This document shows, in pieces, positions 1 to 50,571 of a stretch of DNA of 64,000 nucleotides; positions within the stretch are counted from its first letter, which is position 1, and every line of letters starts with the position of its first letter. A model generated the notes under the pieces. That model was not told the DNA's origin. It did not search any database and worked only from the letters and a program-made list of their open reading frames with translations. The DNA is taken from the UHGV virus genome UHGV-1383976; one strand, given 5' to 3'. The DNA is from a virus. Both the position numbers and the translations under genes were made by a program.

Positions 1-93
1 AAAAATTTCAAAATTCAAATTTGCAAAAATTTCAAAATTCAAATTTGCAAAAATTTCAAAATTCAAATTTGCAAAAATTTCAAAATTTGACTT
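1..93. repeat. 24-bp direct repeat (AAAAATTTCAAAATTCAAATTTGC) x ~3.8, iteron-like; array may continue upstream of window start
   Basis: Perfect copies at 1-24, 25-48 and 49-72; partial fourth copy 73-91 merges into the -35 of the downstream promoter. Confidence 0.9.
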
Positions 94-115
94 TCTCCCT
101 TTCTTGTGCTATAAT
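87..115 (+). promoter_or_regulatory. sigma-70-like promoter TTGACT-17nt-TATAAT with TGn extended -10
   Basis: ttgact at 87-92, 17-nt spacer, tataat at 110-115, tgc immediately upstream of -10; 75 nt upstream of first gene. Confidence 0.7.
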
Positions 116-190
116 TATAAATAGAAGAGATAAGTAGGGAAAGAATTTAGTAAATTTTCCCAACCCGCCACTATACTAAAGGAGACTTAT

Positions 191-1630
191 ATGTATATAC
201 CTAATGTGTCACCCCAACCGCGTCGAAAATCAACATTATCGCTCGACTGGACGCTTGAAACAGCAGTCGAGCGCACAGATTTTTTGGAAACCTATTTGGC
301 CAATCGAACCGTCCCCCTCTCTGAGTCTGACCTCGAAATGTGTGGAAACTATCTACTTTGGGGGCGTGGCTCGAACGGTCTAAACGCTGAACAAGAAGGC
401 TACGTCCAATTAGAGCGCCGCAACTCTACATGGGCCTCTAGCGCGAATACCCGCCAAGTGTCCTCAATTGAGGAGCTAACAGAAAACCCAACTTTTGATG
501 AGGCGCAATTTCACTCGCTGGCCGACACAACTTACAAGACGCCTAAACCAAACTTCTCACGTGAAGAATGTCTGCGCAAAGCCCCGCCTGAATTTATTCC
601 AATGCTGCGGGATTTGTTTGGACGCATTGATCGTGTTGAACTATCAATTGGATTTTATGATAGGGCGCACGGCAAACGCAAAACAGACTTACCCGAACGC
701 CTGACTCGCAAGTTTTCACCCGAAGAGTTGTTTGATTTAGAAGAACGCGCGCTTAGTTGGATAAACGGCCAGTATCTCAAGAAGAAACACCTTTTGGTGG
801 AGCTGAGACGCGAGCAATACACCATAAAGGACAGTTTTTCTAATACCCTAATGGCGCGACCCACAAATAAGTTTGTGGAGGAAGTTTCGCCGACATTTTG
901 TGGACCAGAATCAGCAGAAGATGGATTTTTGGTTCTCCCCATTGGCTTGTCTGACTCCACAAGACAAACGCAAGGCAAAAGTAAGTCGGCCGACTGGTTT
1001 TTGGAGTTTGAGGAACTCGCCGCGAAAAAAGACGATCCGACCTATCAGAGGCAAGCCCGCAAGTTGGAAAATCGACTAATTGAGCGAGGAATTTGTCAGC
1101 CACATAAGACGTCTAAAAAGACACAAGAACCTCAAAAATCGGTCATGCCATTTGGTTTTCTTACAATCGACTTCCGCAATCCGACCCACATTTGTAGATT
1201 GTTGGATAGCCAAAAGCTACTAATAACTGACCCCTCTCTCTCACGAGTGCGCGATACCCTTGATTTTTATGTGCGGCAAGCCAATTTGACTCCCGTTCAA
1301 CAAAAAGTGCTTGAACTCAAACTAGCCGGTAAACAAAATATGGATATCAAGGAAATTGTCAATAAAGAATTTGACCGCTCTTATCAGACAAACTACATTT
1401 CTACCATTTATCGGCAATACGTAGCCCCCGCAATTGCGGATGCGGCAACTCGTCATTTGGAAATTGTGCGCGCTATCGCTGAGGGGCCAGAACGTTTCAA
1501 ACGCTGTTCAGTCTGCGGCCGCTTGTTGGTAGAAAGTGAAACCTATTTCATACACAAGAGCCGCGCGAAATCAGGTTTTTCAGCTCGCTGTAAACAGTGT
1601 GATCACGACTATCGGAAAAGGAGAAAATAA
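191..1630 (+). CDS. Putative DNA-binding regulator: sigma-70 region-4/LuxR-like HTH (LTPVQQKVLELKLAGKQNMDIKEIVNKEF) plus C-terminal C4 zinc ribbon (CSVCG...CKQCDH); function unknown
   Basis: ATG at 191 with GGAG RBS; 479-aa ORF; HTH-like and CxxC..CxxC motifs read from translation; GC content visibly higher than in tail/replication genes. Confidence 0.5.
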   Translation: MYIPNVSPQPRRKSTLSLDWTLETAVERTDFLETYLANRTVPLSESDLEMCGNYLLWGRGSNGLNAEQEGYVQLERRNSTWASSANTRQVSSIEELTENPTFDEAQFHSLADTTYKTPKPNFSREECLRKAPPEFIPMLRDLFGRIDRVELSIGFYDRAHGKRKTDLPERLTRKFSPEELFDLEERALSWINGQYLKKKHLLVELRREQYTIKDSFSNTLMARPTNKFVEEVSPTFCGPESAEDGFLVLPIGLSDSTRQTQGKSKSADWFLEFEELAAKKDDPTYQRQARKLENRLIERGICQPHKTSKKTQEPQKSVMPFGFLTIDFRNPTHICRLLDSQKLLITDPSLSRVRDTLDFYVRQANLTPVQQKVLELKLAGKQNMDIKEIVNKEFDRSYQTNYISTIYRQYVAPAIADAATRHLEIVRAIAEGPERFKRCSVCGRLLVESETYFIHKSRAKSGFSARCKQCDHDYRKRRK

Positions 1631-2059
1631 ATGAAAGAAAAAGAAAATAAAGTCTCTATGAAACAGTTTCAAGAATTCTTGGACTTGTTCTCACAACTTC
1701 AAATTTATGACCTAATTGCGCTGTGCCAGATTATGAGCACTCCGATGGGTTATGAAAAACAAGAAGGGGAGGAACGCGCACGGCCGCGTGAGTTAGCTGA
1801 CATTTTGGAGGAAGTGATGGATAAGTTTCTAGCGCTTCCGAGGACAAGCCGCAAAGACCTGTTGAAGGTAATGCGAGTTGCTGTCAAAAATCCATCACCT
1901 GAACCCAAAGAATTCACAAAGATGGCAGCCGCGAAATCGGGTAAGTTGGCCACTCCATCAAACGATTCGATTGAATGTGTCGATGGTAAACCCGCTCTAC
2001 AGACTTGCTCCACTAACACGTGCGGCGTTGCTTCAAAAACAAGTGAAGGTGATACCTAA
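1631..2059 (+). CDS. Hypothetical protein (142 aa)
   Basis: ATG overlaps upstream stop (TAAATG); co-directional with neighbours, no recognisable motif. Confidence 0.5.
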   Translation: MKEKENKVSMKQFQEFLDLFSQLQIYDLIALCQIMSTPMGYEKQEGEERARPRELADILEEVMDKFLALPRTSRKDLLKVMRVAVKNPSPEPKEFTKMAAAKSGKLATPSNDSIECVDGKPALQTCSTNTCGVASKTSEGDT

Positions 2060-3087
2060 TGCCCAGACTCGGACCACAGATGATTCATCCACGAATTGAA
2101 ACACAGACTTGTTCATGGTGCGGGTCGCTTTTAGGAAGTGATGAATTTGCTTACACAAATTCTCCTTTCTATCCTAGAAAGCGTCTTCCGATGTGTAATT
2201 CGTGCATCAAACAGTATTTGGTTGAAAAAGACTTTCAGTGGGATGCTATTGACCGCATTTGTCAGTGCGCTGACATTCCGTTTGTCCCACGAGAGTTTGA
2301 GCGAGTTCATAACGAGAAAGGCGATGATTGTTTCTCCATCTACGCGGCGCTTTTTGCGACCTCTGAATATGAGGGGCTTGGATGGGACAATTATTACAAG
2401 GCTTATAAACAATTGCGCGATAACGGCCAGTTGATTGATGAGCTTCCATTGCTAGCAGAAGACAAGCGCGCAAAATTGATCGACCGATGGGGCGCCAATT
2501 ATGATGATGAAGCTTTGACATACCTTGAACAACTTTATCAAGGCTTACAGGCCACACAGAATATTGCAGGTGCTCTCCAAAGCGACCAAGCCTATAAAAT
2601 TTGTAAGATTTCCTATGAGATTGACTGCCGCATTAGAGAGGGTGTTGATTTTGATAAGCTGTTGGGTTCTTATGATAAGCTTGTCAAGACAGCCGAATTT
2701 ACACCGAAAAATGCGAAAAATGCGGCAGACTTTGATACCACGGGAGAATTGATTAAGTTCTTAGAGAAAAAAGGTTGGCGTTGTAAATACTATGATGGCG
2801 TTACAAGAGATATTGTTGATGAAACAATCAAAAACATTCAAGCCTACAACCAACGTCTTTACACAAATGAAAGCGGCCTTGGCGAAGAAATAACTCGTCG
2901 CATTGAAGCCCTTGAACGTGCGAAAAAACTTGAAGGCGCGGAGCAGTCTTTTGAAGAGCGTTATTATGGCGAGAGCGCGGATGTTAGTGATAATGAAGCT
3001 GACCTCTATGAAACCGAAGGCTACAAGGAGCTTCTTTCAATGGATGGCGACGATTTTGAAGCAGAGGTTGAAGGTTATGACTCCTAA
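2059..3087 (+). CDS. Hypothetical protein with N-terminal zinc ribbon (CSWCG...CNSC) and acidic C-terminus; terminase small subunit candidate by position only
   Basis: 342-aa ORF immediately upstream of and overlapping the terminase large subunit start by 11 nt. Confidence 0.45.
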   Translation: MPRLGPQMIHPRIETQTCSWCGSLLGSDEFAYTNSPFYPRKRLPMCNSCIKQYLVEKDFQWDAIDRICQCADIPFVPREFERVHNEKGDDCFSIYAALFATSEYEGLGWDNYYKAYKQLRDNGQLIDELPLLAEDKRAKLIDRWGANYDDEALTYLEQLYQGLQATQNIAGALQSDQAYKICKISYEIDCRIREGVDFDKLLGSYDKLVKTAEFTPKNAKNAADFDTTGELIKFLEKKGWRCKYYDGVTRDIVDETIKNIQAYNQRLYTNESGLGEEITRRIEALERAKKLEGAEQSFEERYYGESADVSDNEADLYETEGYKELLSMDGDDFEAEVEGYDS

Positions 3088-6000
3088 AAAAATTCCTCTT
3101 TTATTAGAGAAAAAAGAAAATATGTTCCGAGCGCCTGATCGACCAGTGCGCGACGGTATTGAGCTTGAGAAGGGAGTCGCCCTTTCAGAGCAATATTTAG
3201 AAGAACATTTAGAGGACATTGAAAATGTAATGGGTACGTTTATTGCGTATCCTGATATTTATCTTGACACGATAGCAACAGAGAACTCACCTTCTTTGTT
3301 TTTCTATCAGCGCATCACCTTGCGCGCTATTATGAGATTTAAGGAAATATATATCTGTGCCTGTTTGAAAGGTGATACTCCAATTCTTACAGAACATGGA
3401 ATGGTTCCCATAAAAGATTTTGATCCAACAGAGCGAGTGTGGAGTGATGGCCAGTGGCGAAAAGTAGAAAACCTTAATCGACGTGAATGGCATGGAAATT
3501 TGTGTCAAATTTCGGCTGATAACTGCTTTGAAGATACAATTACAACAACTGATGACCACAAATTTTTGGTAGTGCCGCGCAAGAATAATGCGGCCCGTCC
3601 GGGGCTGTTTTGGAGAAAAGGATTAGACTTTTTTGGTATTCCAAACTACAATGAGCGGAAGGAATTTTACCGAAAAGCTTTGCGCGAAGTCATACCTCGA
3701 TGGGTTGAGGCAAAAGATCTTACTGACAATGATTGGCTTTTATCGTCAATCGACCTTGAGATGCGCGACATTGAAAAATTGAAAACGCCAACACCACCTA
3801 AGAAAGCAACTAATCTAATTCCGCCAGAAATTGAGTTAAACAATGATTTCTATGAATGGCTTGGAATTTGGCTCGCAGAAGGCGGTTGGGACGAACATCG
3901 AGTTGTTTTTACAATTTCAACCGAGGAAGAGCGTCTCAAAAATCGCATTATTGAGTTGTCTGAAAAAATTTTTGGGCTAACGCCACGTGTGTATGCTCAA
4001 CCTGAGCATCACAAGCAAAACCTTTCGATCGGTAGTACGCATTTAAGTCTGTTTTTCTCTCAGCTTTTCCAGTGCGCGCCCAATGAAATGAACCAATGGA
4101 ACAAATGGATTCCACAAACTCTAATTCATTGCGACCCGCACAAACAACTTCAACTTGTAAAGGGCTGGCTTGATGGAGATGGATATTATCGAAAAATTGG
4201 TAATTCACCACGCTATAAGGGGACTACAGTTTCTAATCAGTTGTGCGAGGGCATCAAAAATATCCTCTATCGAAATTTTGTAAATCCATCTATTACGACT
4301 GAAGTTCGTCCTAAAAAGGCAAAAGTATATAACATTAATTTTAATGGTGCATTAGCTTTTGAATTTGAAGAAGCAATAAATAATAATAGGCCTGTTCGCA
4401 TAGATGAAACAATGCGACTTGGAGAATATTATCCCGTCAAGTATGGCAATAAGTTTTATATGCGGAACAAGGTTCGAGAAGTTAAAATTTTACCGTCAGA
4501 TGATGAGGATGTTTATTGCCTTCAAATGGAGAACAAAACATTTTGTATCAATGGTGTAGAAGGGCATAATTGTCGCGCATACTCGAAGAGCTTTATCTCA
4601 ATTTTGGCAATGATGTTGGAATGTATTTTTATTCCGGGAACTCGTAGATTTATCTGTGCCCCCAACAAGAAGCAGGGCGCGCAAATAGCCAAAGAAAAGA
4701 TAAATGAAATTTATGACAAGTGGCCTCTTATAAGGCGAGAAGTGGTCAGAGGCGATATTGACCCAATGCCGGGAAATTTTGGTTCAGATTATGTCAGCTT
4801 GACGTTTCGTAATGGCTCTACATTCGAAGTTTGTGGTGCATTGGAAAGCACCCGTGGATTGCGTAAATATGGTGGTTTGATAGACGAGATTCGTGATCAT
4901 GAGGAACAACCGATAAGTGAAATTGTCCTTCCTCTTCTCAATGTTTCACGCCGTCTTCCTGATAATACTGTAAATCCACGTGAGCCAAATCAACAAACAA
5001 TTTTTGCTACAAGTGCCGGCACTAAAATGTCATTTGCTTATGACAAGCTTATCTCGGTTTTTGAGAATTCGATTATTCTGCCGAGCCAATCATTTACATT
5101 CGGCTGTGATTACCGTGTACCCATGATGCACGGGCTTGTAGATAGGAAATACATCAACAATCTAAAAATGGACCCATCTTTCAATGAAGAAAGTTTCGCC
5201 CGTGAATATATGTCATTGTGGAGCGGGGCTTCTGACGAAAGTTGGTTCAATTTTAGCAAAATGGAAAAGCATCGCAAAATAAAAAATCCAGAATTTCACG
5301 CGAATTTTAGAGCCGGAGTCAATCAATTCTACTTTATTTCGGTAGACGTAGCAAGATTGGCCGGCTGCCAAACTGTTGCGTGTGTTTTTCGTGTAAATAT
5401 TAAAAATGATAGATACTATGCAACACTTGTAAATGTTATTGTGCTTGGTAAGCAAATGGAGCTAAAAACATTTACTCAACAGGCAATTGACCTCAAAAAA
5501 CTTATTAGGGACTATAAACCAAAAGAGTGTCTTATAGACACAAATGGTTTGGGTGTTGGTCTTGCTGATGAAATGATAAAAGTCCATTATGATGAACACG
5601 GTGAAATGCTTCCAGCATATGGCTTCTTCAATGATGACTCTTATAAAAAAGTGCAGCCAAAAGATGCTATTTGTATCTTATATTCAATGAAAGCCAATGG
5701 CCCATTGAACAGTGAAATACATGGGACAACTTATGCCCGCATAAATGGCGGTATGATTCAGTTTCTGATAAAAGAGCAAGATGCGAAAATCGCTTTGCTC
5801 GCTACAAAAGTAGGACAGAAGATGAGTATTGAACAGCGCATCAAGCGACTTATGCCGCATGAAATGACGTCGAGTCTTTTTGAAGAAATGGCTAATCTTC
5901 GTTTGAAAAGAACAGGCTCTGGCACTGACATAGTGCTCGAACAAATCAATACTCGATTCCCTAAAGATAAATACTCTGCTTTTTCCTATGGCGTTTGGCG

Positions 6001-6094
6001 TATCAAACAATTAGAGGATGAAGCAACTAAAAAGCGTCGGCGCCGCACACCCGGTGTAAAGCGCCAACTAACCTTTTTTTCAGGAGGTCGCTAA
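3077..6094 (+). CDS. terL: Terminase large subunit (ATPase + nuclease) interrupted by an intein
   Basis: Start chosen at ATG 3077 (GAAGG RBS), overlapping the upstream gene. Extein sequence KEIYICA|CRAYSKSF... reconstitutes a P-loop-like Walker A once the intein is removed. Large C-terminal region is of terminase size. Position is directly upstream of the portal gene. Confidence 0.8.
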   Translation: MTPKKIPLLLEKKENMFRAPDRPVRDGIELEKGVALSEQYLEEHLEDIENVMGTFIAYPDIYLDTIATENSPSLFFYQRITLRAIMRFKEIYICACLKGDTPILTEHGMVPIKDFDPTERVWSDGQWRKVENLNRREWHGNLCQISADNCFEDTITTTDDHKFLVVPRKNNAARPGLFWRKGLDFFGIPNYNERKEFYRKALREVIPRWVEAKDLTDNDWLLSSIDLEMRDIEKLKTPTPPKKATNLIPPEIELNNDFYEWLGIWLAEGGWDEHRVVFTISTEEERLKNRIIELSEKIFGLTPRVYAQPEHHKQNLSIGSTHLSLFFSQLFQCAPNEMNQWNKWIPQTLIHCDPHKQLQLVKGWLDGDGYYRKIGNSPRYKGTTVSNQLCEGIKNILYRNFVNPSITTEVRPKKAKVYNINFNGALAFEFEEAINNNRPVRIDETMRLGEYYPVKYGNKFYMRNKVREVKILPSDDEDVYCLQMENKTFCINGVEGHNCRAYSKSFISILAMMLECIFIPGTRRFICAPNKKQGAQIAKEKINEIYDKWPLIRREVVRGDIDPMPGNFGSDYVSLTFRNGSTFEVCGALESTRGLRKYGGLIDEIRDHEEQPISEIVLPLLNVSRRLPDNTVNPREPNQQTIFATSAGTKMSFAYDKLISVFENSIILPSQSFTFGCDYRVPMMHGLVDRKYINNLKMDPSFNEESFAREYMSLWSGASDESWFNFSKMEKHRKIKNPEFHANFRAGVNQFYFISVDVARLAGCQTVACVFRVNIKNDRYYATLVNVIVLGKQMELKTFTQQAIDLKKLIRDYKPKECLIDTNGLGVGLADEMIKVHYDEHGEMLPAYGFFNDDSYKKVQPKDAICILYSMKANGPLNSEIHGTTYARINGGMIQFLIKEQDAKIALLATKVGQKMSIEQRIKRLMPHEMTSSLFEEMANLRLKRTGSGTDIVLEQINTRFPKDKYSAFSYGVWRIKQLEDEATKKRRRRTPGVKRQLTFFSGGR
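3362..4570 (+). mobile_element. Intein (403 aa): Hint domain with nested LAGLIDADG homing endonuclease, inserted in terminase P-loop
   Basis: N-terminal splice motif C-LKGDTPILT. Two LAGLIDADG-like blocks (LGIWLAEGG and VKGWLDGDGYY). C-terminal ...VEGHN followed by extein Cys (HN|C) at 4565-4573. Confidence 0.85.
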
Positions 6095-6097
6095 TGA

Positions 6098-7633
6098 ATG
6101 GCGAATGAAGTAAAGGATACGATTGGCGCACGTCAGGTAAAGAAACGAAATTTCAACTTGACTGCTCTTGAGGGCGCCAAAGTTCCAGTTGTACCGACTA
6201 GTGAAACCAGTTGGACGCAACTTTCATACGGTATTCCGCGGCGTTATGGTTATTTTGGGCGCGATCGTTATGACGAAAAAGATATCAAGGACATTATCGA
6301 AAATGGTGATGTCCTTGCTCAGCAAAAACTTTCTCGTTATTTTTATGAGCGTAGCCCGCTGTATCGCCAACAAATTATACATTACGCATCTATTTTGAAA
6401 TATGTTGGGATTCTTATTCCGCACAGTAAAAGCGGCTCTCTCTCCACTCCTAACATAAAGAAGAGATACGAGCGTGGTTTAGAGTTTGTGGAACACTTCA
6501 ATTTACCTAAATATGGCTTTGAATGGTCAGAAAAGGCTCTTGTGGATGGTTGTTATTACGGCGTTATTCAAGACATTACAAAAGATAGTATTTCAATTCT
6601 TGATTTGCCAATGCGCTACTGCGTGAGCCGTTTCAAAGACCCAAATGGAAATGATTTGATTGAATTTGATGTGTCATATTTTGACACAATTGCTGACGAG
6701 GGTTCTCGTGAAATTGCGCTTGATACTTATCCGCAACTGATAGCAAATCACTATCGTGCATGGAGTCGCCGCAAGAGTGTGTCAAATAAGTGGGTAATGA
6801 TTCCGGCTGACATTGGTATTTGTTTCCCAATGTTGAGCAGCGGCTTACCTTTCTTTTTGCCGATTTTACCGTCAATTTTACAGTATGAAGATACTGTCGA
6901 AATTGAACGTGAGCGCGACCTTGAAGAAATTAGAAAGATAATTGTTCAGAAAATCCCGCATAATACATCCACTAATGAGCTTTTATTTGAGCCTGATGAG
7001 GCCCTTGAAATGCATGAAGGTACTGTTGCTATGATGGGCGGTAATAAAAATGTTAGTGTCCTTACAACCTATGCGGACGTCGATGCAATTGTTTCTAAAA
7101 CTTCGTCTGAAGCATCGTCCAATTCAATCGAAAAAATGCTGCAGAATGTGTTCAATAAGTCGGGTGTTAGCCCGCAATTGTTTGCATCTACTGGCAGTAC
7201 TACTCTAAAAATGTCTATCAGAAAAGACATCGCTTTTATGATGACAATGGCTAACAAATATGCTACTTTTCTGACTGGCATTTTGAATAAGTTGTTTGGC
7301 AATTCTAATATAAGTTTCAAATATGAAATTCTTCCTGTTGGAGAGCAAAACTGGGATGACTACATCAAGTCTGCAAAAGAACTTGCTTCTCTTGGCTATA
7401 GCTGGCTTGTACCATCTATCGCGCAAGGCATTTCTCAGCGCGACCTCAGTGATATCAAGCAACTTGAGAATGATGTTTTGAAATTGCCTGAAAATCTGAT
7501 TCCGCTTCAATCCGCCTACAACGCAATTGCAGGCGAGGTTGGCGCGCCAAAGAAACAAGAAGAGGAAAAAGCTGAACAAACAATCAAAAATGAAAAATCA
7601 TTAGATAATACAGCGGGAGGTTCGGTTAGCTAA
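6098..7633 (+). CDS. Putative portal protein (511 aa)
   Basis: Immediately downstream of terL with AGGAGG RBS; size and position typical of portal; no motif verified. Confidence 0.45.
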   Translation: MANEVKDTIGARQVKKRNFNLTALEGAKVPVVPTSETSWTQLSYGIPRRYGYFGRDRYDEKDIKDIIENGDVLAQQKLSRYFYERSPLYRQQIIHYASILKYVGILIPHSKSGSLSTPNIKKRYERGLEFVEHFNLPKYGFEWSEKALVDGCYYGVIQDITKDSISILDLPMRYCVSRFKDPNGNDLIEFDVSYFDTIADEGSREIALDTYPQLIANHYRAWSRRKSVSNKWVMIPADIGICFPMLSSGLPFFLPILPSILQYEDTVEIERERDLEEIRKIIVQKIPHNTSTNELLFEPDEALEMHEGTVAMMGGNKNVSVLTTYADVDAIVSKTSSEASSNSIEKMLQNVFNKSGVSPQLFASTGSTTLKMSIRKDIAFMMTMANKYATFLTGILNKLFGNSNISFKYEILPVGEQNWDDYIKSAKELASLGYSWLVPSIAQGISQRDLSDIKQLENDVLKLPENLIPLQSAYNAIAGEVGAPKKQEEEKAEQTIKNEKSLDNTAGGSVS

Positions 7634-9060
7634 TGAGTAAAAAGATTACTCAGTTCGATGTGCAGCTGTATGGTGATTTACAGCCGTACAACCAAGTCCT
7701 CTCAAAATGTCGTTGCCGCATTTTTTATAAGTATGAAAACCGCAATGGCGGTTTTATTACAGATGAATTTGCTGATAAGCTCGTCGCGACTTTGCCTTAT
7801 GTCCCTGTAAAGGGTATTTATGACAAATTCAATGATGACTATACCGACCATGGCAAGAACCGTGATGAGGGCCGCATTTATGGTATTGTGCCTGAATCAC
7901 GTAACTTTGCGTGGGAGCCGCACGTTGATGACGATGGTGTTGAACGCATTTATGCGTGCTGCGATGTTCTCGTCTTTACGGCCCTTTATCAGGAAGCTAG
8001 TGAAATTATTTCTAAAGGTCAATCAATGGAGCTTTTTGCGCCTTCGATAAAGGGCAGTTGGAAAACAATTCACGGTCAGCGTTTATTTGTATATACTGAT
8101 GCTTGTTTCCTTGGGCTTCAAGCCTTAGGGGACGATGTAGAGCCTTGTTTTGAAGGCGCGGCATTTTTTACTTTATATTCTAACTTACAAGAGGCAGTTG
8201 ACAAGCTTGAGCAATTTGCTTTAGATAATTCAACTGTCGACAATGGAGGACAAGAAATGGATAAACTCAATTTCAAGCTCAGCGATAGTCAGAAGTTCGA
8301 TATGCTTTTCTCTGCGCTGAACCCTGAGTATAATGAGGAAGGCAATTGGAGTGTTGCTTATTCTATTTGCTCTGTCTATGATGAATATGCTATCGCGTAT
8401 GATTATGAAAACAATCGCTACGTGCGGGCTTATTACACCAAGAATGACGAAGACGATTCAATTTCTCTTGGCGAGGTCGTCGAAGTTTATATTGTTGACG
8501 TGACCGAGAGCGAAAAGAAGACTCTCGATACTATTCAGGCAATAAATGGCGGCAGCTTTGAGAAGGCTGACGAAATTTATTCCAAGAATGAAGAACTAAC
8601 CAATCAGGTTTCTACTCTTGAGGGTCAAGTTTCTGAGTTCCAGACTCAAGTTGAAACTTTCAATTCTGAAAAGGAAAATTTTGAACAGCAAATTGTAGAG
8701 CTGAATAACGCAAACGCTACTTTACAAACGGAGAATGAAAATTCTGTCGCAGAACTCTCTACTTTGAAGGAAGAAGTTGAACAGCTTCGCGCATTTAGGC
8801 TCAACGCCGAAACGGCTGAAAAAGAATCAATTCTCCAAAAGTATTCTAAGTCTCTTCCTGAAGAAACTCTCAAGAAATACAGTGAGAGTCTTGAGAAGTT
8901 TGCGATTGCTGATTTGAAGAAAGAATTGGCCTTTGAAATGGTGGAGCATAATCCAAATTTATTCAATTTGGAGACTCCCGCTCAGTACGTCCCGAAAGAA
9001 GTTCATACGGGCGGTATTGAGGATATCTTATCCAAATATACTAATAAAATGGAGGACTAA
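7633..9060 (+). CDS. Putative scaffolding-like protein with long C-terminal coiled coil (475 aa)
   Basis: TAATG overlap with portal stop. Heptad-rich segment (ELTNQVSTLEGQVSEFQTQVETFNSEKENFEQQIVELNNANATLQTENEN...). Lies between portal and capsid genes. Confidence 0.4.
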   Translation: MSKKITQFDVQLYGDLQPYNQVLSKCRCRIFYKYENRNGGFITDEFADKLVATLPYVPVKGIYDKFNDDYTDHGKNRDEGRIYGIVPESRNFAWEPHVDDDGVERIYACCDVLVFTALYQEASEIISKGQSMELFAPSIKGSWKTIHGQRLFVYTDACFLGLQALGDDVEPCFEGAAFFTLYSNLQEAVDKLEQFALDNSTVDNGGQEMDKLNFKLSDSQKFDMLFSALNPEYNEEGNWSVAYSICSVYDEYAIAYDYENNRYVRAYYTKNDEDDSISLGEVVEVYIVDVTESEKKTLDTIQAINGGSFEKADEIYSKNEELTNQVSTLEGQVSEFQTQVETFNSEKENFEQQIVELNNANATLQTENENSVAELSTLKEEVEQLRAFRLNAETAEKESILQKYSKSLPEETLKKYSESLEKFAIADLKKELAFEMVEHNPNLFNLETPAQYVPKEVHTGGIEDILSKYTNKMED

Positions 9061-9065
9061 TACAT

Positions 9066-9620
9066 ATGGCTATCAAAAGACTCGTTATTGATGGTTTTGG
9101 CCAGATTGAGTTAAACAATGTGGCTTTCCGTAGAGACGGTCGCGTTGAAGCCCAGTGCGCCCTTGACGCCGAGGACTTCGCTAGCGTTCCTGCGGAAAAT
9201 GGTATGCTTTTGGCCGTTGATAAGGCTAATCGCTGCATAAAATTTTATAATGCTTCTGAGGATCTTCCTCTGGCAATAAATTATAGTTCTGAGCATCTTT
9301 ATGATGAGCGCCTCAACGCTCTGAAGGACTTTAGTCTCAAGCCCGGTCAGCTTTATCCTCGTATGGGTTATCCCGCTATCGGTGACTTGTTTACTACTAA
9401 CACACTGTGCTATGACGATACCGAGTATACAAGTGAGGATGCTCTTTTGACTGCACTCAAGGCTTGCAATACCGCTGTTGTTTATGCTGGTGCTTCCACC
9501 AATGGTGCTTGGAAGGTTTCTGCTACTAAGCCGACTGCTGGTGTCATTGCTAAGGTTGTCAAGGCTTACAGTATGCCTGATGGTCAGTTCGGCGTCAAGC
9601 TCCAGATTCTTGGTTGCTAA
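9066..9620 (+). CDS. Hypothetical head-associated protein (184 aa)
   Basis: Strongly codon-biased ORF between scaffold-like and capsid genes. Confidence 0.4.
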   Translation: MAIKRLVIDGFGQIELNNVAFRRDGRVEAQCALDAEDFASVPAENGMLLAVDKANRCIKFYNASEDLPLAINYSSEHLYDERLNALKDFSLKPGQLYPRMGYPAIGDLFTTNTLCYDDTEYTSEDALLTALKACNTAVVYAGASTNGAWKVSATKPTAGVIAKVVKAYSMPDGQFGVKLQILGC

Positions 9621-9639
9621 TTGAGGAGGTATTTTGAAT

Positions 9640-10686
9640 ATGGCTACTATAAAAGAACTGAAAGACCTCGCTCTCCACGCCGCTAAGGGTACTGCTCCCG
9701 CAAACTTCACTCAAGAAAATGTTGAGGATGCTTTCCGTGGTGAGATGGGTAAGCTCGCTTCTTCTTTGAACGAGTTCAATCGTAATAAGTACGATATTTT
9801 TGAGATTATAATGAGTGCCGCCGATGAAATCGTTCCTAATAAGGTTATTTCCGGTATGGCTCCATTTGCTGAAGTTCAGCAAGTTGCCTTCAAGCAGAAG
9901 GCCGTCTTCCGTCGTCGTGTTGGTCAGAACCGCGCTAAGCTGTTCCTTACCCGTGCGGCTGCGGCTGGTGTTTATGAGACTTTCCGTCTTGATCACACTG
10001 ATTTTACCGTTGAGACTTATGCGATCGGCGGTGCGACCACTATCGACTTCCAGCGTTTCCTTGATGGCGCTGAGACTATGTCCGAGCTTATGGATATCGT
10101 GACCGAGGGTATGGTTGACGTTATCTATGGTGAAGTTCAGCGTGCGCTGAAGGATGCTATCAATGCGGCTGGTCGTCCTGCGGTTAACAAGTATTTCGGC
10201 AACTCCTTTGATGGCACTGAAATGATGAAGCTTATTTCTGTTGTCAAGGCTTACGGCTCTAGTGCTGTTATCTTTGCTCCTCCTGAGTTCGTTGCCGCTA
10301 TGGGTCCGGATGCTATCGTTCCTGTCGGTACTAACTATCAAGGCGTTTATCATCCTCAGGACATCGATGCAATTCACAACACTGGCTACGTCAATCTGTT
10401 CCGTGGTACTCCCATTGTTCAGATCCCTCAGTCCTTTATTGACGAGAGCAATACCAAGACTTGGATTGATCCACAGTTTGCTTACATTCTTCCTGCTGGT
10501 AAGGAAAAGGTTGTCAAGGTTGTTCTTGAGGGTGGCCAGCAAATGTACGACTTCCAGAACCGCGACGCTTCTATGGAACTTCACACCTATCGTCTGATGG
10601 GCGTTGCTATTCTGGCACATCACAACTGGGCGATTTACCAGAACACTGGTATCACCGAGACTGTTGATTCCCCTTACGATATATAA
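9640..10686 (+). CDS. Putative major capsid protein (348 aa)
   Basis: Track start 9634 is TTG; ATG at 9640 sits 9 nt after GAGGAGG. Highly biased codon usage (gct/ctt/ggt). Followed by a strong rho-independent terminator. Lies after the scaffold gene. Confidence 0.55.
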   Translation: MATIKELKDLALHAAKGTAPANFTQENVEDAFRGEMGKLASSLNEFNRNKYDIFEIIMSAADEIVPNKVISGMAPFAEVQQVAFKQKAVFRRRVGQNRAKLFLTRAAAAGVYETFRLDHTDFTVETYAIGGATTIDFQRFLDGAETMSELMDIVTEGMVDVIYGEVQRALKDAINAAGRPAVNKYFGNSFDGTEMMKLISVVKAYGSSAVIFAPPEFVAAMGPDAIVPVGTNYQGVYHPQDIDAIHNTGYVNLFRGTPIVQIPQSFIDESNTKTWIDPQFAYILPAGKEKVVKVVLEGGQQMYDFQNRDASMELHTYRLMGVAILAHHNWAIYQNTGITETVDSPYDI

Positions 10687-10696
10687 TTGAGTTATG

Positions 10697-10735
10697 AAGA
10701 GGGAGGGAGTTTCTCCCTTCCTCTATTTTTTATTT
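10697..10735 (+). terminator. Rho-independent terminator after capsid gene
   Basis: agagggaggga-gtttc-tcccttcctct hairpin followed by tattttttattttt. Confidence 0.8.
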
Positions 10736-10758
10736 TTAGGAGTAAAGGAGTTTTTATT

Positions 10759-11238
10759 ATGGATAAGAAAAAGATTGCTATTACAAGTCAGGTCAATGGC
10801 CGTGTTGGCATCAATGTGCCTGAGATGCGCTTCAAGAAAACTTGGGAAAAGAAAGGTCAAAAGGTTCTTGTAGACGCAGAGATACTGGAAGAGATTTTTT
10901 ATGACCCCGGTGTTGAGTATATGTTCCGTCAGGGCATTTTGTATATAGAGGATATGGACTTCAAGAAAGAAGTCGGTTTGGAGCCTAATGATGCGAAAGA
11001 GCCTGTCAATATCGTCAAGATTGATGATGCAAAGCTTGCTCGTGCACTTGGCCCTATGCCGGTTAGTGAATTTAGGAAGTTCTTTGAGCCGCTTACAACT
11101 GAACAGAAGCATCAAGTTGCCGACTATGCTATTACTCACGAATGTACTGATTTTAACAAGAGTGAAATAATTCAAAAGGCCATTGGCATTAATGTCATAA
11201 GCGCAATTCAGTTGAATAGGCAGGCTAAGGCTGAATAA
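10759..11238 (+). CDS. Hypothetical protein (159 aa), head-tail region
   Basis: ATG at 10759 with AAGGAG RBS. The longer track ORF start at 10687 lies inside the terminator hairpin and is rejected. Confidence 0.5.
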   Translation: MDKKKIAITSQVNGRVGINVPEMRFKKTWEKKGQKVLVDAEILEEIFYDPGVEYMFRQGILYIEDMDFKKEVGLEPNDAKEPVNIVKIDDAKLARALGPMPVSEFRKFFEPLTTEQKHQVADYAITHECTDFNKSEIIQKAIGINVISAIQLNRQAKAE

Positions 11239-39621: not shown

Positions 39622-40908
39622 TCAATCTTTATTTTTCAAAACCAGATTGAGAATTATACCAGCCATAAGAGCAAGTGCAGTAGCAGAAATTGAGAAATCA
39701 GTTCCACCAATAGCAAGGCCGCTTATACCGAGAGAAAGAACCGCCGAAACAATTATCAGATTCTTTTGTCCATTCAGATCAACTTGTTGAAGCATCTTTA
39801 TACCACTACAAGCAATAAAACCATAGAGAACAATAGCTGCACCAGCAAAAACACAAGCTGGGATTGAACTGATAAAAGCTTGAACCGGAACGAAAAACCC
39901 CATAAGTATTAGAATAAGAGCGGCTGTCCCACTAACCTTAGCTGAAGCTACTTTACTAAAGCCCACACACGCGACGCCCTCTCCATAAGAGCAAGCGCCA
40001 AGTCCACCAAGTAAACCACTAACAGCATTTGCAAGTCCTTCACCAGCGAAGATGCGGTTAAGGCCGGGCTTCTGATATAGGTCAATACCAATTATGCCGC
40101 CAAGAGCAGCATGGTCGCTAAGGGCCTCCATCATTGCACTTATTGTATAAGCAATAAACAAAAATATCAAAGGAATAAGCTGTGGCAATTCAATGAATTT
40201 GTACCAATTGACATGAGAGATAGCGAGGTCAGGCAAAGCAAAAAGTCTCATATTTTCAAAAATACTAAAATCTACAACAGGAAAAATATTTGTAATTGTA
40301 AGCGCAACCGCATAAGTATAACCAACTAAAGTGCCAAGCAGAAACGGGAGAATCTTTATAATTCCTTTTGCATAATGTGAAAACAGTGCAATTGCTATCA
40401 TTGTGATGATAGCTATACTAACACCCCACATATTAGTTTCGCCATTTATCTGAACATAAGTCAAGATAAAAGGCATAAGATTAATACCTATAACAACCGT
40501 GACCGCGCCGATCAATGATTTGGGGAAAATTTTATATATATTTTCAACGGGAACACGACTAAAGATAAGACCAAAAATTGTATAAACAACCCAAATTACA
40601 AAACAACCAATAATTGCACCTTCATAACCACAAGAAGCAAGTGCAATTAGGATAGGAGCGACGAAAGCACCAGAATTCGAGATGAACATCGGAGACTGGC
40701 CTTTTGTTATAAGAATATAGGCCAAAGTACCGCAACCCGCGCCGACAAGTGCACCAGATATGGCAACGCCGCAAATATTGGCAATAAGCACTGTTGCCAC
40801 AAAAACTGATAACATCATCTGAATGGCAAACAGAATCAGCTTGCCAAAAGGAATTCTATCTCCAAGTGAATAAATCATTCGTGAGTCGCCTCCCAGTCTT
40901 GAAGCCAT
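39622..40908 (-). CDS. Nucleobase:cation symporter (NCS2; xanthine/uracil permease family) membrane transporter (428 aa)
   Basis: ~12-14 TM segments; glycine-rich helices typical of UraA/PyrP-like permeases (ISGALVGAGCGTL, GLLGGLGACSYGEGVACVGFSKV). Confidence 0.65.
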   Translation of the reverse strand: MASRLGGDSRMIYSLGDRIPFGKLILFAIQMMLSVFVATVLIANICGVAISGALVGAGCGTLAYILITKGQSPMFISNSGAFVAPILIALASCGYEGAIIGCFVIWVVYTIFGLIFSRVPVENIYKIFPKSLIGAVTVVIGINLMPFILTYVQINGETNMWGVSIAIITMIAIALFSHYAKGIIKILPFLLGTLVGYTYAVALTITNIFPVVDFSIFENMRLFALPDLAISHVNWYKFIELPQLIPLIFLFIAYTISAMMEALSDHAALGGIIGIDLYQKPGLNRIFAGEGLANAVSGLLGGLGACSYGEGVACVGFSKVASAKVSGTAALILILMGFFVPVQAFISSIPACVFAGAAIVLYGFIACSGIKMLQQVDLNGQKNLIIVSAVLSLGISGLAIGGTDFSISATALALMAGIILNLVLKNKD

Positions 40909-46581: not shown

Positions 46582-49500
46582 TTACTCACCCCTTACGTGC
46601 GTTGTAATGCGACCATATTCATCAATGTCTGTTATTTCTTCGATTAGATGATATGGAGTTCGGGAGTATTTCTTTGCCAGAAACCCGTCATCCCTTCTAA
46701 TACCACACACAATAATCTTGTTGCCGCGTGAAAAGATCGATTTTTCAATAATATGCTTCTTTCCATCTGGCTCTCTTTCAGAAATTTGTTTGTCATAATT
46801 CGCAAATGCTTCTCCAAAAATTTTGACTTGAACAACACCATCTTTTGTCAATAACGAAACAATCTTTTTTGCTTTATCTCTATCCAACACAGTCCCGCAA
46901 ATACGATGTATTCTATAAATCGGAATCGGCGCGCTATCACTATCTTTGCCGCGTGGTTTGAAATAAGTTTCAACGTCAGGCTGCTCTTTCAGCTTGAAAA
47001 AGTCTGAAAAACCTTGAGCGCGCTCATCAATATTTTGCAATTCATGCTCATGGAAATAACACGAAACACTATCCATTTCCCACTTACTTATCGAGCCAAG
47101 ACAATACTTATTCCATACATCTCGCGTCAACCGCTCATTCACGGTGTCTAATAACTCGTCGTGATTTTCTTTTATCCATTTGCGAACATTATCCATATAT
47201 TTCTTATAGATTTTATCCCAAGCTGTGATACTAATTTTGAAACCACTTTCAGTTTCATCACTTGTACTCAAACAGTCGAGTGAGAAGTTTTTATCGAGAA
47301 AATTCAACGCGATATTATCCAGTCCATAGAACGAGGAATCTAACTTCATTTTTTTGAGGTATTTCGTGAAATTATAAACACGACGTTCAAAGTCAAGTTT
47401 TTCTGGTAGCATCCCAAAATTTATCAACATTGCCATATTTTGAAGGGTAATGCGTTTTTTTGTATCACTAATTAGGCCGACATATTCACGCATTAGATTT
47501 ACTCTATCGCCAAAGGCATCAAAAGCGCCGCATTTTATAAGGTTTATCATTTGTGGCTTGTTAATTTTGACTTTAGAGAGAAAGTCTGGAATTGATGTGT
47601 AGGGACGATTGGCAATTATGGATTTGACGATGTCTTCGCCGACCTTGACGATGCCGCTCATACCGTAGCGAATTGTTGAGTTTTCAACATCAGGGGAGAA
47701 GGTAAAAGTGGATTTATTGATATCAGGAGGAGAAATAGAAATCCCGGCCATTCGCATCTTACCAATCGCCGACGCAATTTTACCATAGTTGGTTGTTTTG
47801 ACTTTTTTCTTTTTCTTCTTTATATCAATTTTTTCTTCTTCTTCTTCATCATCGTCGTCATCATCTTCGGTGTCATCGACAAATTCTTCAATACAGTTAT
47901 TATAACTATATTCAATAATGTTTTCTGACGTTTCATCTTCATCATCATTTGACTCATTGCCGCCACTATCGCTAATCAAACACGCGCAATTCCAAAAAAT
48001 TGTTGGAAAACGATATGCAAGATTCATTTCCTGCAAAGCTACAAGCGAATAGGAAAGAGTGTGTGCGCGGCAGAATGAATATCCTCTCTGGACTCTGAAC
48101 AAAACATCCCATACATAATGGGCAAGAGTCATATCACAACCTTTTTCTTTTGCATTTTCAAAATAGGCTTTTTCACATTCATCAAAGAGTTTACCTTGTT
48201 TTTTTGCAATCGCCTTTCGACATTTATCCGCAAAAGTCAGATTATTTCCTCCAAGCCTTTCTTCCTGCAGAAGCTGCATCATTCCTTCTTGACTCTCACA
48301 TATACCACTCGTTATCGCATTATGTCCAATTAACCATTTTATATCTTCATTTTTTAATCCATATTGAATCATTTCGTCTTGCCATTCATTGATATTCAAA
48401 CGATATCTTGCCCACATATCAAGTGGCTGCTCGGCTCCTTTTTCAGGAGCCATTAGACGAATTACTGAATTCAAAACAGCTAATTCACTAACGTTTTTAG
48501 GATGAGTTAGTGCTATTCCAGAAATGCCACTTGGCTGTTCCATTTGGAATAAACTGGATATCTTATGATTCCAAACCATTTCCCACATTTCTGGTGCAGT
48601 TCGTTCAAGATTATATATGCCAATTACACTTTCATAAGTTTCACGTAATGTTGGCTTTCGCTCTATATAACCATAATCACATAATAAGTCTAGCTCATTA
48701 TGTATTTTATCAAGGGCTTCAATTGACAACATATCAATTTTGATTAGCGATGCATCCTCCGCATCGTGAAGCTCAAAAGCCGTGATGACTGTGCCATCAG
48801 GCGCGCGAGTTAACGCTGTCGATTCCGTAAAAGGCTCGTCAACGAAGATTACTCCACCGGCGTGAACACCAATGCCGCAAATTAGCCCCTCAATTTTTGA
48901 AGCAACTTCCCAAACATCGCTGTAGGTTTTCATTGCTTCAACAAATTGTTTTACTGGCTTAAAACCTTTGTCTTCATCGCCCTTTATACATTGAGTAAGT
49001 GAGCGAAGTTGCCCACGATCGGCTGGAATCAGAGACGCCAAATAGGATGCTATATCAACATCAATTCCCAAGCCGCGGCAGGCCGTTAAAATTGCCGATT
49101 TAGATTTTTCTGTTTTGAATGTAATAACATTCGCAACTCTGTCTTCTCCATAAAACTCACGGAACTTCTGTAAAACTTGTGCGCGACGTCCACCTTCAAT
49201 ATCGGTATCGACATCCAATACTGAAGCTCGTTCGGGATTAAGAAAACGCCAATGAAATACTTGAGTTTCTTCTTGGACTGGATTTATCTGTGTTATATCC
49301 AATGCATATAACAAAGTAAATCCTGCACCCGAACCACGCCCCGGCCCGACAAGAGAACCAGCTTCCCAACATAAATCAATATTTTTCTGCAGATTCAGAA
49401 AATAAGTCGACCAATGTGTATGATTCGTTATTGACGAACGCCATGTATCATCAAGACAAATATTTATCTCATCATACGCTCGTTTGTTCTGCAAGCCCGG

Positions 49501-50571
49501 CTTCCGCTGGATGCCATCAATAATCGCCCAAACCAGTTTTCTATCACCCCAATAATCAGAGTTATAGAAAGTTTCCAAATAAGGGATTTCTTGTTTGAGA
49601 ATATCATATGCTGCCTCATCTTCAGGAAAAGTTTTCCAATAAAGTTCTGGAATTTTTAAGGGCCGCATTAGTGAAAAATCCTCACACATTTCACCTATTT
49701 TGAGAATATTGCAATATGCGAGTTGAAGTTGCTCTTCAGTGAAATAGTTGAAATACTCTTCTATTTCTTTTGTATCCATAAGATACGTAGTTGCATAGAA
49801 ATCATCTACTTCTCGCTCACCATTTTGTGCATTAAGATATGCTTTATGAATCGCGCAGTCTTCTTTTTTGAGATAATGGCTGTCAGTTGTTATAACATAG
49901 GAAATGTCATATTTAACTGATAATTCAAGCAACTTCTTATTTACATAAATCTGCTCTTTGTTATAACTTGGTTGCATTTCAAAAAAGAAATTACCGTGCC
50001 CAAAAAGTTTATCCAAAGACAAAATCCAGTTTTCAATTTTGCCATTGAGTGAGCTATCATTTCGCGCTTTGAGAAGCTGAGTAGGAAGACAGCCGCCAAG
50101 ACAAGCTGTCATTCCCACAATATGCCCCGGATTGGCTCCCACGATTTCAAACAAATCACTATAATAAGTTGGCATACGACGCATACCTCGCGCCATATAA
50201 CTACGCAATCCTGCGCGAGTAGATAATTCTCTAATTTGTTTATGCCCGATTGCATCTTTAGCTAACAAGATAAAATGATAATATTTATCTTGTCCCGCAA
50301 TAAAATTCGATGCGTTTAACCCATTTCGACAAAGATAAATTTCATTTCCTTGAATGAATTTGAAATCAGGACATTTTTCTTTTACTTTTTTATAATACTT
50401 TTCTGCCTTAATCGCGCCAGATATTGATTCATGGTCTGTAAGAGCGACGACTTTATGACCTAACTCGATGGCGCGATCAATTAGGTCTGAGACTTTTATT
50501 ATACAGTCTCGAAGCCTTTCATTAGAATAATCCGAATGATTATGTAGCGATCCGGGATACGGAATATTCAA
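46582..50571 (-). CDS. DNA polymerase III alpha-like replicative polymerase with N-terminal PHP domain (1329 aa)
   Basis: PHP motifs (YPGSLHNHSDYS, VALTDHESISG). DnaE-like size. Internal acidic/basic low-complexity insert (DDTEDDDDDDEEEEEKIDIKKKKKK). TTG start with AAAGGAAAGGGG RBS. Confidence 0.8.
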   Translation of the reverse strand: MNIPYPGSLHNHSDYSNERLRDCIIKVSDLIDRAIELGHKVVALTDHESISGAIKAEKYYKKVKEKCPDFKFIQGNEIYLCRNGLNASNFIAGQDKYYHFILLAKDAIGHKQIRELSTRAGLRSYMARGMRRMPTYYSDLFEIVGANPGHIVGMTACLGGCLPTQLLKARNDSSLNGKIENWILSLDKLFGHGNFFFEMQPSYNKEQIYVNKKLLELSVKYDISYVITTDSHYLKKEDCAIHKAYLNAQNGEREVDDFYATTYLMDTKEIEEYFNYFTEEQLQLAYCNILKIGEMCEDFSLMRPLKIPELYWKTFPEDEAAYDILKQEIPYLETFYNSDYWGDRKLVWAIIDGIQRKPGLQNKRAYDEINICLDDTWRSSITNHTHWSTYFLNLQKNIDLCWEAGSLVGPGRGSGAGFTLLYALDITQINPVQEETQVFHWRFLNPERASVLDVDTDIEGGRRAQVLQKFREFYGEDRVANVITFKTEKSKSAILTACRGLGIDVDIASYLASLIPADRGQLRSLTQCIKGDEDKGFKPVKQFVEAMKTYSDVWEVASKIEGLICGIGVHAGGVIFVDEPFTESTALTRAPDGTVITAFELHDAEDASLIKIDMLSIEALDKIHNELDLLCDYGYIERKPTLRETYESVIGIYNLERTAPEMWEMVWNHKISSLFQMEQPSGISGIALTHPKNVSELAVLNSVIRLMAPEKGAEQPLDMWARYRLNINEWQDEMIQYGLKNEDIKWLIGHNAITSGICESQEGMMQLLQEERLGGNNLTFADKCRKAIAKKQGKLFDECEKAYFENAKEKGCDMTLAHYVWDVLFRVQRGYSFCRAHTLSYSLVALQEMNLAYRFPTIFWNCACLISDSGGNESNDDEDETSENIIEYSYNNCIEEFVDDTEDDDDDDEEEEEKIDIKKKKKKVKTTNYGKIASAIGKMRMAGISISPPDINKSTFTFSPDVENSTIRYGMSGIVKVGEDIVKSIIANRPYTSIPDFLSKVKINKPQMINLIKCGAFDAFGDRVNLMREYVGLISDTKKRITLQNMAMLINFGMLPEKLDFERRVYNFTKYLKKMKLDSSFYGLDNIALNFLDKNFSLDCLSTSDETESGFKISITAWDKIYKKYMDNVRKWIKENHDELLDTVNERLTRDVWNKYCLGSISKWEMDSVSCYFHEHELQNIDERAQGFSDFFKLKEQPDVETYFKPRGKDSDSAPIPIYRIHRICGTVLDRDKAKKIVSLLTKDGVVQVKIFGEAFANYDKQISEREPDGKKHIIEKSIFSRGNKIIVCGIRRDDGFLAKKYSRTPYHLIEEITDIDEYGRITTHVRGE

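Follow-up and report, generated by a model that had tools for sequence, protein, structure and literature searches.

The interrupted terminase gene

The sequence analysed here is a stretch of 64,000 nucleotides (nt) from the virus genome UHGV-1383976, called the window in what follows, and its subject is an intein lying within the gene for the terminase large subunit (TerL) of a gut phage. The open reading frame (ORF) is listed at 2903..6094 and is uninterrupted over 1005 codons from the ATG at 3077; this ATG (MTPKKIPLL...) is most likely the real start of the gene; the gene calls in the related contigs L001 and L002 agree with it and show the same 11-nt overlap with the end of the upstream gene. 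The intein occupies 3362..4570, and with these bases removed the flanking exteins read ...KEIYICA-CRAYSKSF... in a ligated protein of 602 amino acids (aa) and 69.2 kDa. The original prediction had placed an intein at the same coordinates, and reading the DNA bore out every residue that it quoted: the junction codons give the C-LKGDTPIL start and the HN end followed by an extein Cys, its two LAGLIDADG-like blocks are the motifs at 3851-3889 and 4145-4189, and its estimates of about 46 kDa for the intein and 68 kDa for the terminase compare with computed masses of 47.3 and 69.2 kDa. The features of the locus are the following.

3077..6094, plus strand: TerL (YonF-type) precursor gene, intein included; 1005 aa, 116.5 kDa, from ORF translation
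3077..3361, plus strand: N-extein, 95 aa, ending KEIYICA, from translation
3299-3316, plus strand: FFYQRI in the N-extein, aligned to the adenine-binding YQR of T4 gp17
3362..4570, plus strand: intein, 403 aa, 47.3 kDa, a Hint splicing domain split by a LAGLIDADG endonuclease, from the 1209-bp indel and the fold
3362..3400, plus strand: splicing block A, Cys1-LKGDTPILTEHG, with the N-terminal nucleophile Cys1 (TGT 3362-3364) opening 'CLKGDTPIL'
3539..3574, plus strand: splicing block B, ITTTDDHKFLVV, with Thr63 and His66 forming TxxH (3548-3559) and Phe68 at B:12
3851..3889, plus strand: LAGLIDADG motif 1 (block C), YEWLGIWLAEGGW, LGIWLAE173G with catalytic Glu173; helix 161-173 followed by beta strands in the model
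4145..4189, plus strand: LAGLIDADG motif 2 (block E), QLQLVKGWLDGDGYY, GWLDGD273G with catalytic Asp273; helix 259-273 followed by beta strands in the model
4508..4543, plus strand: splicing block F, DVYCLQMENKTF, with Cys386 (4517-4519) at F:4, where Asp is the usual residue
4550..4573, plus strand: splicing block G, NGVEGHN and the extein Cys; H402-N403 is CAT AAT (4565-4570) and Cys+1 is TGT (4571-4573)
4571..6094, plus strand: C-extein, 507 aa and stop, from translation, opening with the Walker A motif
4571-4591, plus strand: Walker A CRAYSKS, placed by hhalign on SRQLGKT of T4 gp17
4871-4888, plus strand: Walker B GGLIDE, placed by hhalign on MIYIDE of T4 gp17
5003-5020, plus strand: coupling-motif region FATSAG, from the C-extein sequence
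5333-5353, plus strand: nuclease-domain motif FISVDVA, from the C-extein sequence
5531-5554, plus strand: nuclease-domain motif LIDTNGLG, from the C-extein sequence
6098-7633: portal gene, next after the terminase (phrog_2739, 1.9e-62)

A Hint-fold intein with a nested endonuclease

The segment 3362..4570 is a complete Hint-fold intein of class-1 type that harbours a two-motif LAGLIDADG endonuclease and sits in the Walker A motif of the terminase. All class-1 catalytic residues (C1, T63, H66, H402, N403 and C+1) are present and conserved in 36 related inteins (alignment A1), among which T63, H66 and F68 are nearly invariant and Cys1 is kept wherever the sequence of a relative extends over the N-terminal junction. 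Its guanine-plus-cytosine (GC) content of 39.4% is close to that of the flanking terminase gene (40.1%) and of the window (39.2%).

When the intein and the extein were each compared as single sequences with those in the PDB, no useful match emerged. A search with the precursor over 5.8 billion proteins collected 69 homologues, and the profile of the 36 intein-bearing sequences in A1 matched TliVMA (4e-16), PI-PkoII (2e-7), gp41-1 (4e-6) and PI-SceI (3e-4) among PDB sequences, as well as DnaE mini-inteins (4e-3) and BIL Hint domains. The AlphaFold model of the intein, built on the alignment, reached a predicted local distance difference test (pLDDT) score of 94 and a predicted template modelling (pTM) score of 0.92, and its 16 best Foldseek matches in the PDB were all endonuclease-containing inteins with E values of 4e-13 to 3e-23, including TliVMA (2.7e-23), PI-SceI (1e-18), PI-PkoII (2e-13), PI-PfuI (4e-13) and PhoVMA; next came free-standing LAGLIDADG enzymes, among them I-Tsp061I, I-DmoI, I-AniI and I-SceI. 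The profile and fold matches therefore identify a Hint domain split by a two-motif LAGLIDADG endonuclease. A search with hidden Markov models (HMMs), which the original prediction had proposed for recognizing both domains, succeeded for the endonuclease (Pfam LAGLIDADG_3 at intein residues 264-323, 28.1 bits against a cut-off of 22.5), and the Hint domain was recovered by profile and fold, the curated Hint models staying below their thresholds.

Host gene and carrier phage

Homology to TerLs and synteny with the portal gene mark the interrupted gene as a terminase large subunit. The extein matches the PHROG family phrog_2 'terminase large subunit' (3.7e-20), and tblastn aligns it with the annotated TerLs of Geobacillus virus E3 (41%) and of Enterococcus, Bacillus, Lactococcus and Brevibacillus ('YonF') phages, the cultured relatives found in this way being large Firmicutes siphophages. 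The 18 best Foldseek matches of the low-confidence extein model in the PDB are all TerLs and lend the assignment slight support. In related contigs, the genes adjoining terL encode the SPbeta-derived Pfam families YonG_N, YonD_N and YonB, and contigs bearing the terminase gene reach 108-132 kb. The carrier, known from gut metagenomes of animals or humans, is an uncultured SPbeta-like phage with a genome of ~110-130 kb. A megablast search of window positions 2000-8000 against 50,697 cultured phage records returned no match, and the phage therefore has no close relative among them.

The closest terminase relatives in genome collections lie in metagenome-assembled genome (MAG) bins assigned to Bacteroidales, Muribaculaceae, Methanobrevibacter, Alphaproteobacteria, Bacilli and others (loci L007-L013 among them), with ruminant, rabbit, chicken and human gut as their sources. 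Because the bin taxa are inconsistent with one another, this suggests mis-binned phage contigs.

Insertion at the Walker A motif

Aligning the extein family to T4 gp17 with hhalign, which was used for motif register only, pairs three motifs in order: YQR with YQR, CRAYSKS with 161-SRQLGKT-167, and GGLIDE with MIYIDE. In their wider setting these are FFYQRI opposite DYQRDM, CACRAYSKS opposite NLSRQLGKT and GGLIDE opposite MIYIDE, which in T4 gp17 are the adenine-binding motif, Walker A (residues 161-167), and Walker B with the catalytic Glu. Across 17 homologues that lack the intein, R97, A98, S100 and K101 do not vary, and since the R-A-x-S-K columns are invariant the register is supported independently of the T4 alignment. 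Read in this register, the intein is situated between Ala95 and Cys96. A deviant Walker A, C-R-A-Y-S-K-S, starts with Cys96, and the insertion point lies 5 residues upstream of the Walker A Lys. The junction falls in the extein model at the end of a strand (90-95) and ahead of a helix (101-115), which is, as modelled, the classic strand, P-loop, helix arrangement. As a 47-kDa insert at the P-loop is incompatible with nucleotide binding, splicing should, as the original prediction had argued, be required before the terminase can work, a deduction from position that is consistent with the literature on phage terminase inteins (PMC5050341).

Intein-less terminases have Cys, Pro, Ser or Thr at the +1 position (alignment A2, window codon 4571-4573); every allele with the intein has Cys there, and so do the intein-less relatives nearest to these alleles. 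With Pro at +1 (APRAFSKSF) an intein could not splice, and alleles of this sort may be refractory to productive invasion.

A natural intein-less allele

The metagenomic genome L001, which is ~95% identical to the window, lacks exactly the 1209 bases of 3362..4570. It aligns in two blocks, positions 30-3193 with window 215-3363 and 3192-9715 with window 4571-11097, and the only ambiguity at the junction is the 2-nt TG common to the TGT and TGC codons. Its TerL (P0007, 602 aa) is 99% identical to the window exteins, differing at 4 residues and at 92 of 1809 nt, and reads KEIYICACRAYSKSF at the junction, that is KEIYICA-CRAYSKSF, the predicted splice product. The original prediction that removal of the intein would join KEIYICA to CRAYSKSF is thus borne out by translation and by a natural allele, and its claim that a deviant Walker A would be restored stands as well, with CRAYSKS lying on SRQLGKT of T4 gp17 and a contiguous terminase existing in nature. 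The 90%-identity cluster of P0007 comprises 174 sequences, and in ~40 more intein-less homologues, 594-606 aa long, the spacing across the junction is likewise uninterrupted. The empty site in L001, with AAGGAGATATATATCTGTGCC immediately followed by TGCCGCGCATACTCGAAGAGC, is a candidate substrate for the endonuclease.

Selection, mobility and decay

Compared with its counterpart in L002 (P0001), the window intein shows 85.9% identity at the DNA level and 92.8% at the protein level. In this comparison the ratio of nonsynonymous to synonymous substitution rates (dN/dS) comes to 0.037 over the full intein; its endonuclease part stands at 0.024, its Hint parts at 0.041 and 0.044, and the C-extein at 0.033. 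With such low ratios at a synonymous divergence (dS) of ~0.95 in the intein, both the Hint domain and the endonuclease are therefore under strong purifying selection.

The similarity of the inteins does not follow that of the genes that carry them. The inteins of P0006 and P0010 are 80% and 78% identical to that of the window and their C-exteins only 61% and 60%, whereas in P0046 and P0047 the order is reversed, with a C-extein 77-78% identical and an intein (337 aa) only 43-44% identical that has lost both catalytic acids. This discordance indicates homing. Catalytic acids are also replaced in other relatives (E173K in P0004 and P0051, E173R with D273N in P0008, E173V in P0055), and shortened inteins of 336-337 aa with degenerate endonuclease domains are found in P0046, P0047 and P0063. 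Such a sporadic distribution is what is expected of a homing cycle of invasion, fixation and decay, with the window copy at the intact stage. It also leaves the original prediction that the intein 'dates the element' unsupported, given that the intein is present in one and absent from the other of two 95%-identical genomes and that its similarity is discordant with that of the host gene.

Of 22 variable sites near the junction (-150 to +300 nt; window 3211-3661), 14 are common to the window and the intein-bearing L002 and 5 to L001 and L002, while further away 25 sites are shared by the window and L002 as against 35 by L001 and L002. The sites shared with L002 near the junction resemble co-conversion, a weak signal that is suggestive only and is not used here as evidence.

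Proposed mechanism and alternatives

We consider it very probable that the element is a class-1-type intein in the Walker A motif of an SPbeta-like TerL, that it splices, and that its endonuclease cuts intein-less alleles and thereby spreads by homing. In the proposed sequence of events, the 116.5-kDa precursor would be translated, an N-S acyl shift by Cys1, helped by Thr63 and His66 of block B, would form a thioester, and the +1 Cys would attack this thioester by trans-thioesterification; Asn403 would then cyclise with the help of His402, releasing the 47-kDa intein and a 69-kDa terminase with its strand, P-loop and helix intact. Only the spliced protein would be expected to bind ATP and package DNA. 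The freed endonuclease, with Glu173 and Asp273 as its catalytic acids, would cut intein-less terL between ...ATCTGTGCC and TGCCGCGCA... during co-infection, and the intein-bearing copy would serve as template for repair, allowing the element to spread.

The sequences and models establish the anatomy and fold of the element, its exact empty site, purifying selection on it and its sporadic, discordant distribution. Several observations weigh against the interpretation as a whole. Homing is what we infer, and splicing and DNA cleavage are predicted activities. Both curated Hint models remain sub-threshold, Pfam Intein_splicing with 23.4 bits against a cut-off of 35.8 (E 5.8e-5) and NCBIfam intein_Nterm with 23.4 bits just short of its 24.5, the latter aligned from exactly Cys1 and over the whole model (positions 1-83); these scores reflect the sensitivity limit of the models rather than a defining biological feature. 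The AlphaFold model of the extein is poor (pLDDT 61), and hhalign gives the alignment to T4 gp17 a probability of 2.7%, a low support although the motifs align. The polymorphism between the window and L001 may be either a gain in the window lineage or a precise loss in L001. Finally, position F:4 is Cys instead of Asp, and the catalytic details could therefore differ from those outlined above.

An element that still splices and whose endonuclease no longer cuts, whether as a fixed, vertically inherited passenger or with the domain kept for another purpose such as folding, appears unlikely. Decay of the endonuclease is common in the family, as the lost acids (P0004, P0051, P0008, P0055) and shrunken domains (P0046, P0047, P0063) testify, and the dS of the intein against L002 (0.95) is similar to that of the exteins (0.71-1.35), which is compatible with long co-inheritance. 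Nevertheless, both catalytic acids and both motifs are intact in the window copy, its endonuclease part has the lowest dN/dS of all segments, a 95%-identical genome exists without the intein, and the similarities of intein and extein are discordant among relatives.

The cysteine of block F

Profile alignment places VYCLQ of the window intein, with Cys386 at F:4, opposite VYDIT of TliVMA, where the residue is Asp. C386 is nearly invariant in the intein family, and Cys is found at F:4 in ~22 of 31 inspected representatives of the wider clade, so that, from the sequences compared, it reads as a trait of the clade and not as a peculiarity of the window copy. F:4 is usually Asp in standard inteins, and a Cys at this position is the catalytic nucleophile of class 3 (WCT) inteins (PMC2807308). 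In the M. smegmatis intein DnaBi1, the F:4 Cys takes part in a regulatory disulfide (PMC6195587). Most members of the wider clade, especially the phage-type DnaE inteins, carry a Cys1...VYCL...HN-Cys signature, looking like class 1 with the cysteine of class 3.

Assignment of the window intein to class 3 was rejected: Cys1 is present, B:12 is Phe68 and not Trp, and G:5 is Gly401 and not Thr. Hence three of the four hallmarks of the class (as defined in PMC2807308) are absent and the F:4 Cys is the sole match.

Splicing could instead be conditional, with Cys1, Cys386 and Cys+1 acting as a redox switch such that packaging needs a reducing cytoplasm, or Cys386 could serve as a class-3-like nucleophile in a hybrid of classes 1 and 3. 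The conservation of the F:4 Cys in the family and the wider clade, its role in class 3 (PMC2807308), the disulfide of DnaBi1 (PMC6195587) and the origin of the source samples in anaerobic gut communities speak for a redox-gated or hybrid intein of this sort. We hold it to be improbable, the other class 3 hallmarks being missing (Cys1 present, Phe at B:12, Gly at G:5) and the class-1 TxxH being intact. If true, DNA packaging would be switched on post-translationally and only in a reducing host cytoplasm, and the signature Cys1...VYCL...HN-C would identify an entire clade of inteins in phage terminases and DnaE as having the redox or hybrid property.

It is extremely improbable that the terminase gene is defective and the insertion in it a dead remnant unable to splice or an artefact of assembly: splicing is a predicted activity, the curated Hint models are sub-threshold and nothing speaks positively for a remnant, whereas the frame is open over all 1005 codons, every catalytic residue is intact at a dN/dS of 0.037, the same architecture recurs in the assemblies L002, L004, L005 and L006 and in a 90%-identity cluster of 53 sequences, and in GC content the insertion matches the host gene (39.4% against 40.1%).

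Comparison with known inteins

That inteins commonly occur in terminases is well recognised (PMC4760082). Among mycobacteriophages ~40% of the inteins lie in TerL, with the Walker A loop providing the commonest sites (PMC5050341), and for mycobacteriophage TerL P-loop inteins experiments have demonstrated both splicing and cleavage, by the intein endonuclease, of the intein-less allele in a partner phage (Kelley et al. 2016, PMC5050341). The original prediction was therefore right to call the terminase P-loop a known hotspot (PMC5050341, PMC4760082, PMC2807308). The window intein resembles TerL1-a and TerL1-b of mycobacteriophages in its Walker A location and in the existence of intein-plus and intein-minus partner phages, and several of those inteins have a homing endonuclease (PMC5050341). 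It differs from them in its host gene, a YonF/SPbeta-type TerL of Firmicutes-like gut phages rather than an actinophage Terminase_1, and in position, since it precedes the first Walker A residue whereas TerL1-a lies between the invariant Lys and Thr and TerL1-b one residue from the TerL1-a site. No close sequence relationship to the mycobacteriophage TerL inteins was detected in the searches made.

The best full-length structural matches are PI-SceI (yeast VMA1), TliVMA, PhoVMA, PI-PfuI and PI-PkoII, in which, as here, Hint is split by a two-motif LAGLIDADG enzyme. These PI-SceI-type inteins share with the window extra structure between block B and the endonuclease, together with Cys1, TxxH, His-Asn and the +1 Cys. 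Identity to PI-SceI-type and archaeal inteins is only 13-18%, their hosts are V-ATPase, ribonucleotide reductase (RNR) and polymerase, and at F:4 the window has Cys where TliVMA has Asp. The window intein would work in the same way as the mycobacteriophage TerL inteins and those of PI-SceI type, and has every testable defining feature of both families except scores above the curated Hint HMM cut-offs. Outside terminases the phage-type DnaE inteins are closest, in a different host protein. Class 3 inteins (MP-Be DnaB, Msm DnaBi1) have in common with it the F:4 Cys and a frequent location in ATPase P-loops, including those of phage terminases (PMC2807308); unlike them, the window intein has an N-terminal Cys, Thr in block B, Phe at B:12, Gly at G:5 and Cys at +1.

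It is a selfish element of a well-known kind in a well-known place, and changes no concept. Nonetheless, it introduces a different insertion point in the terminase P-loop, ahead of the first Walker A residue and not at Lys-Thr. The window and L001, 95% identical and naturally differing in the presence of the intein, also offer both substrate and enzyme for tests of homing in uncultured SPbeta-like gut phages. Left unannotated, the intein causes TerL to be mis-sized or misaligned by gene callers and in terminase phylogenies unless its 1209 bases are cut out. The clade with Cys at F:4 might interest those who engineer inteins or seek conditional splicing.

Relatives and distribution

Exhaustive search of 1.84 billion cluster representatives returned 1174 proteins at E <=1e-3 and only 13 at E <=1e-30; the close intein family is small and set inside a large LAGLIDADG-intein superfamily. 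The window precursor belongs to a 90%-identity cluster of 53 sequences, and the same intein architecture occurs in the independent assemblies L002, L004, L005 and L006; public copies of the precursor are unnamed or called 'hypothetical protein'. The nearest relatives outside terminases are inteins in metagenomic phage-type DnaE (PolIII alpha), 29-35% identical over all 403 residues. These (P0068, P0079-P0081, P0085-P0089 and others) keep the Cys1...VYCL...HN-C signature and the LAGLIDADG motifs; the intein of P0068 lies at the PHP domain, corresponding to residue ~157 of the window DnaE, and those of P0079-P0081 near residue 470-500. The DnaE of the window itself (46582-50571, minus strand; PHP, NTPase, finger and HHH domains) is without an intein, and tblastn found no second intein copy in the window.

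Among the 146 matches listed to cultured-phage TerLs none has an insertion at the site, each being a single uninterrupted piece, and this intein is absent from all 78 of the related terL loci in genomes of the GTDB. No record of a cultured phage carries it at this site; the best match there, with 27% identity, is the intein of the Staphylococcus phage 6ec DNA polymerase.

An Rfam search of the window terL found no introns or other RNA families. In the terL of relatives, group I introns (Rfam RF00028) were detected with 58-98 bits at five loci and 38 bits in L004, at the following positions.

L005, 8427-8728: group I intron in terL
L043, 2724-2949: group I intron in terL
L066, 4457-4677: group I intron in terL
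L042, 3820-4091 and 4468-4665: group I introns in terL
L040, 4430-4764: group I intron in terL
L004, 5413-5715: group I intron, with a GIY-YIG endonuclease ORF just upstream (4642-5493)

As L004 and L005 carry the intein as well as an intron, terL is a mosaic hotspot for self-splicing elements in this phage group. Moreover, many ORFs of terL homologues end abruptly at conserved motifs and continue into unrelated tails, with break points after RGGRRHG, GGLIDEIR (Walker B), FIPG, FYFISV and IDCNGL. This was seen in P0006, P0010, P0013, P0042, P0046, P0047, P0051, P0055, P0058 and P0060, and further in P0061, P0064, P0065, P0070 and P0071, with cluster members of 173-532 aa on contigs of 100-130 kb. 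The break points are probably exon-intron boundaries, at which gene callers would therefore fragment the terminase.

Other genes in the window

An apparent truncation of GyrB (62664-63620, minus strand) was set aside as an effect of the window edge, its frame being open to base 64000. The gene at 191-1630 (plus strand) encodes a 479-aa protein whose C-terminal part is weakly similar to a phage sigma factor (phrog_5767, 4.9e-11), with a Cys-rich, zinc-ribbon-like tail and faint matches to HNH, endonuclease VII and Lar. Amid the phage replication genes for NrdD, DnaE, a helicase, GyrA and GyrB lies a gene of the xanthine/uracil permease family (39622-40908, minus strand; Pfam Xan_ur_permease, 1.4e-54), which may be an auxiliary metabolic gene.

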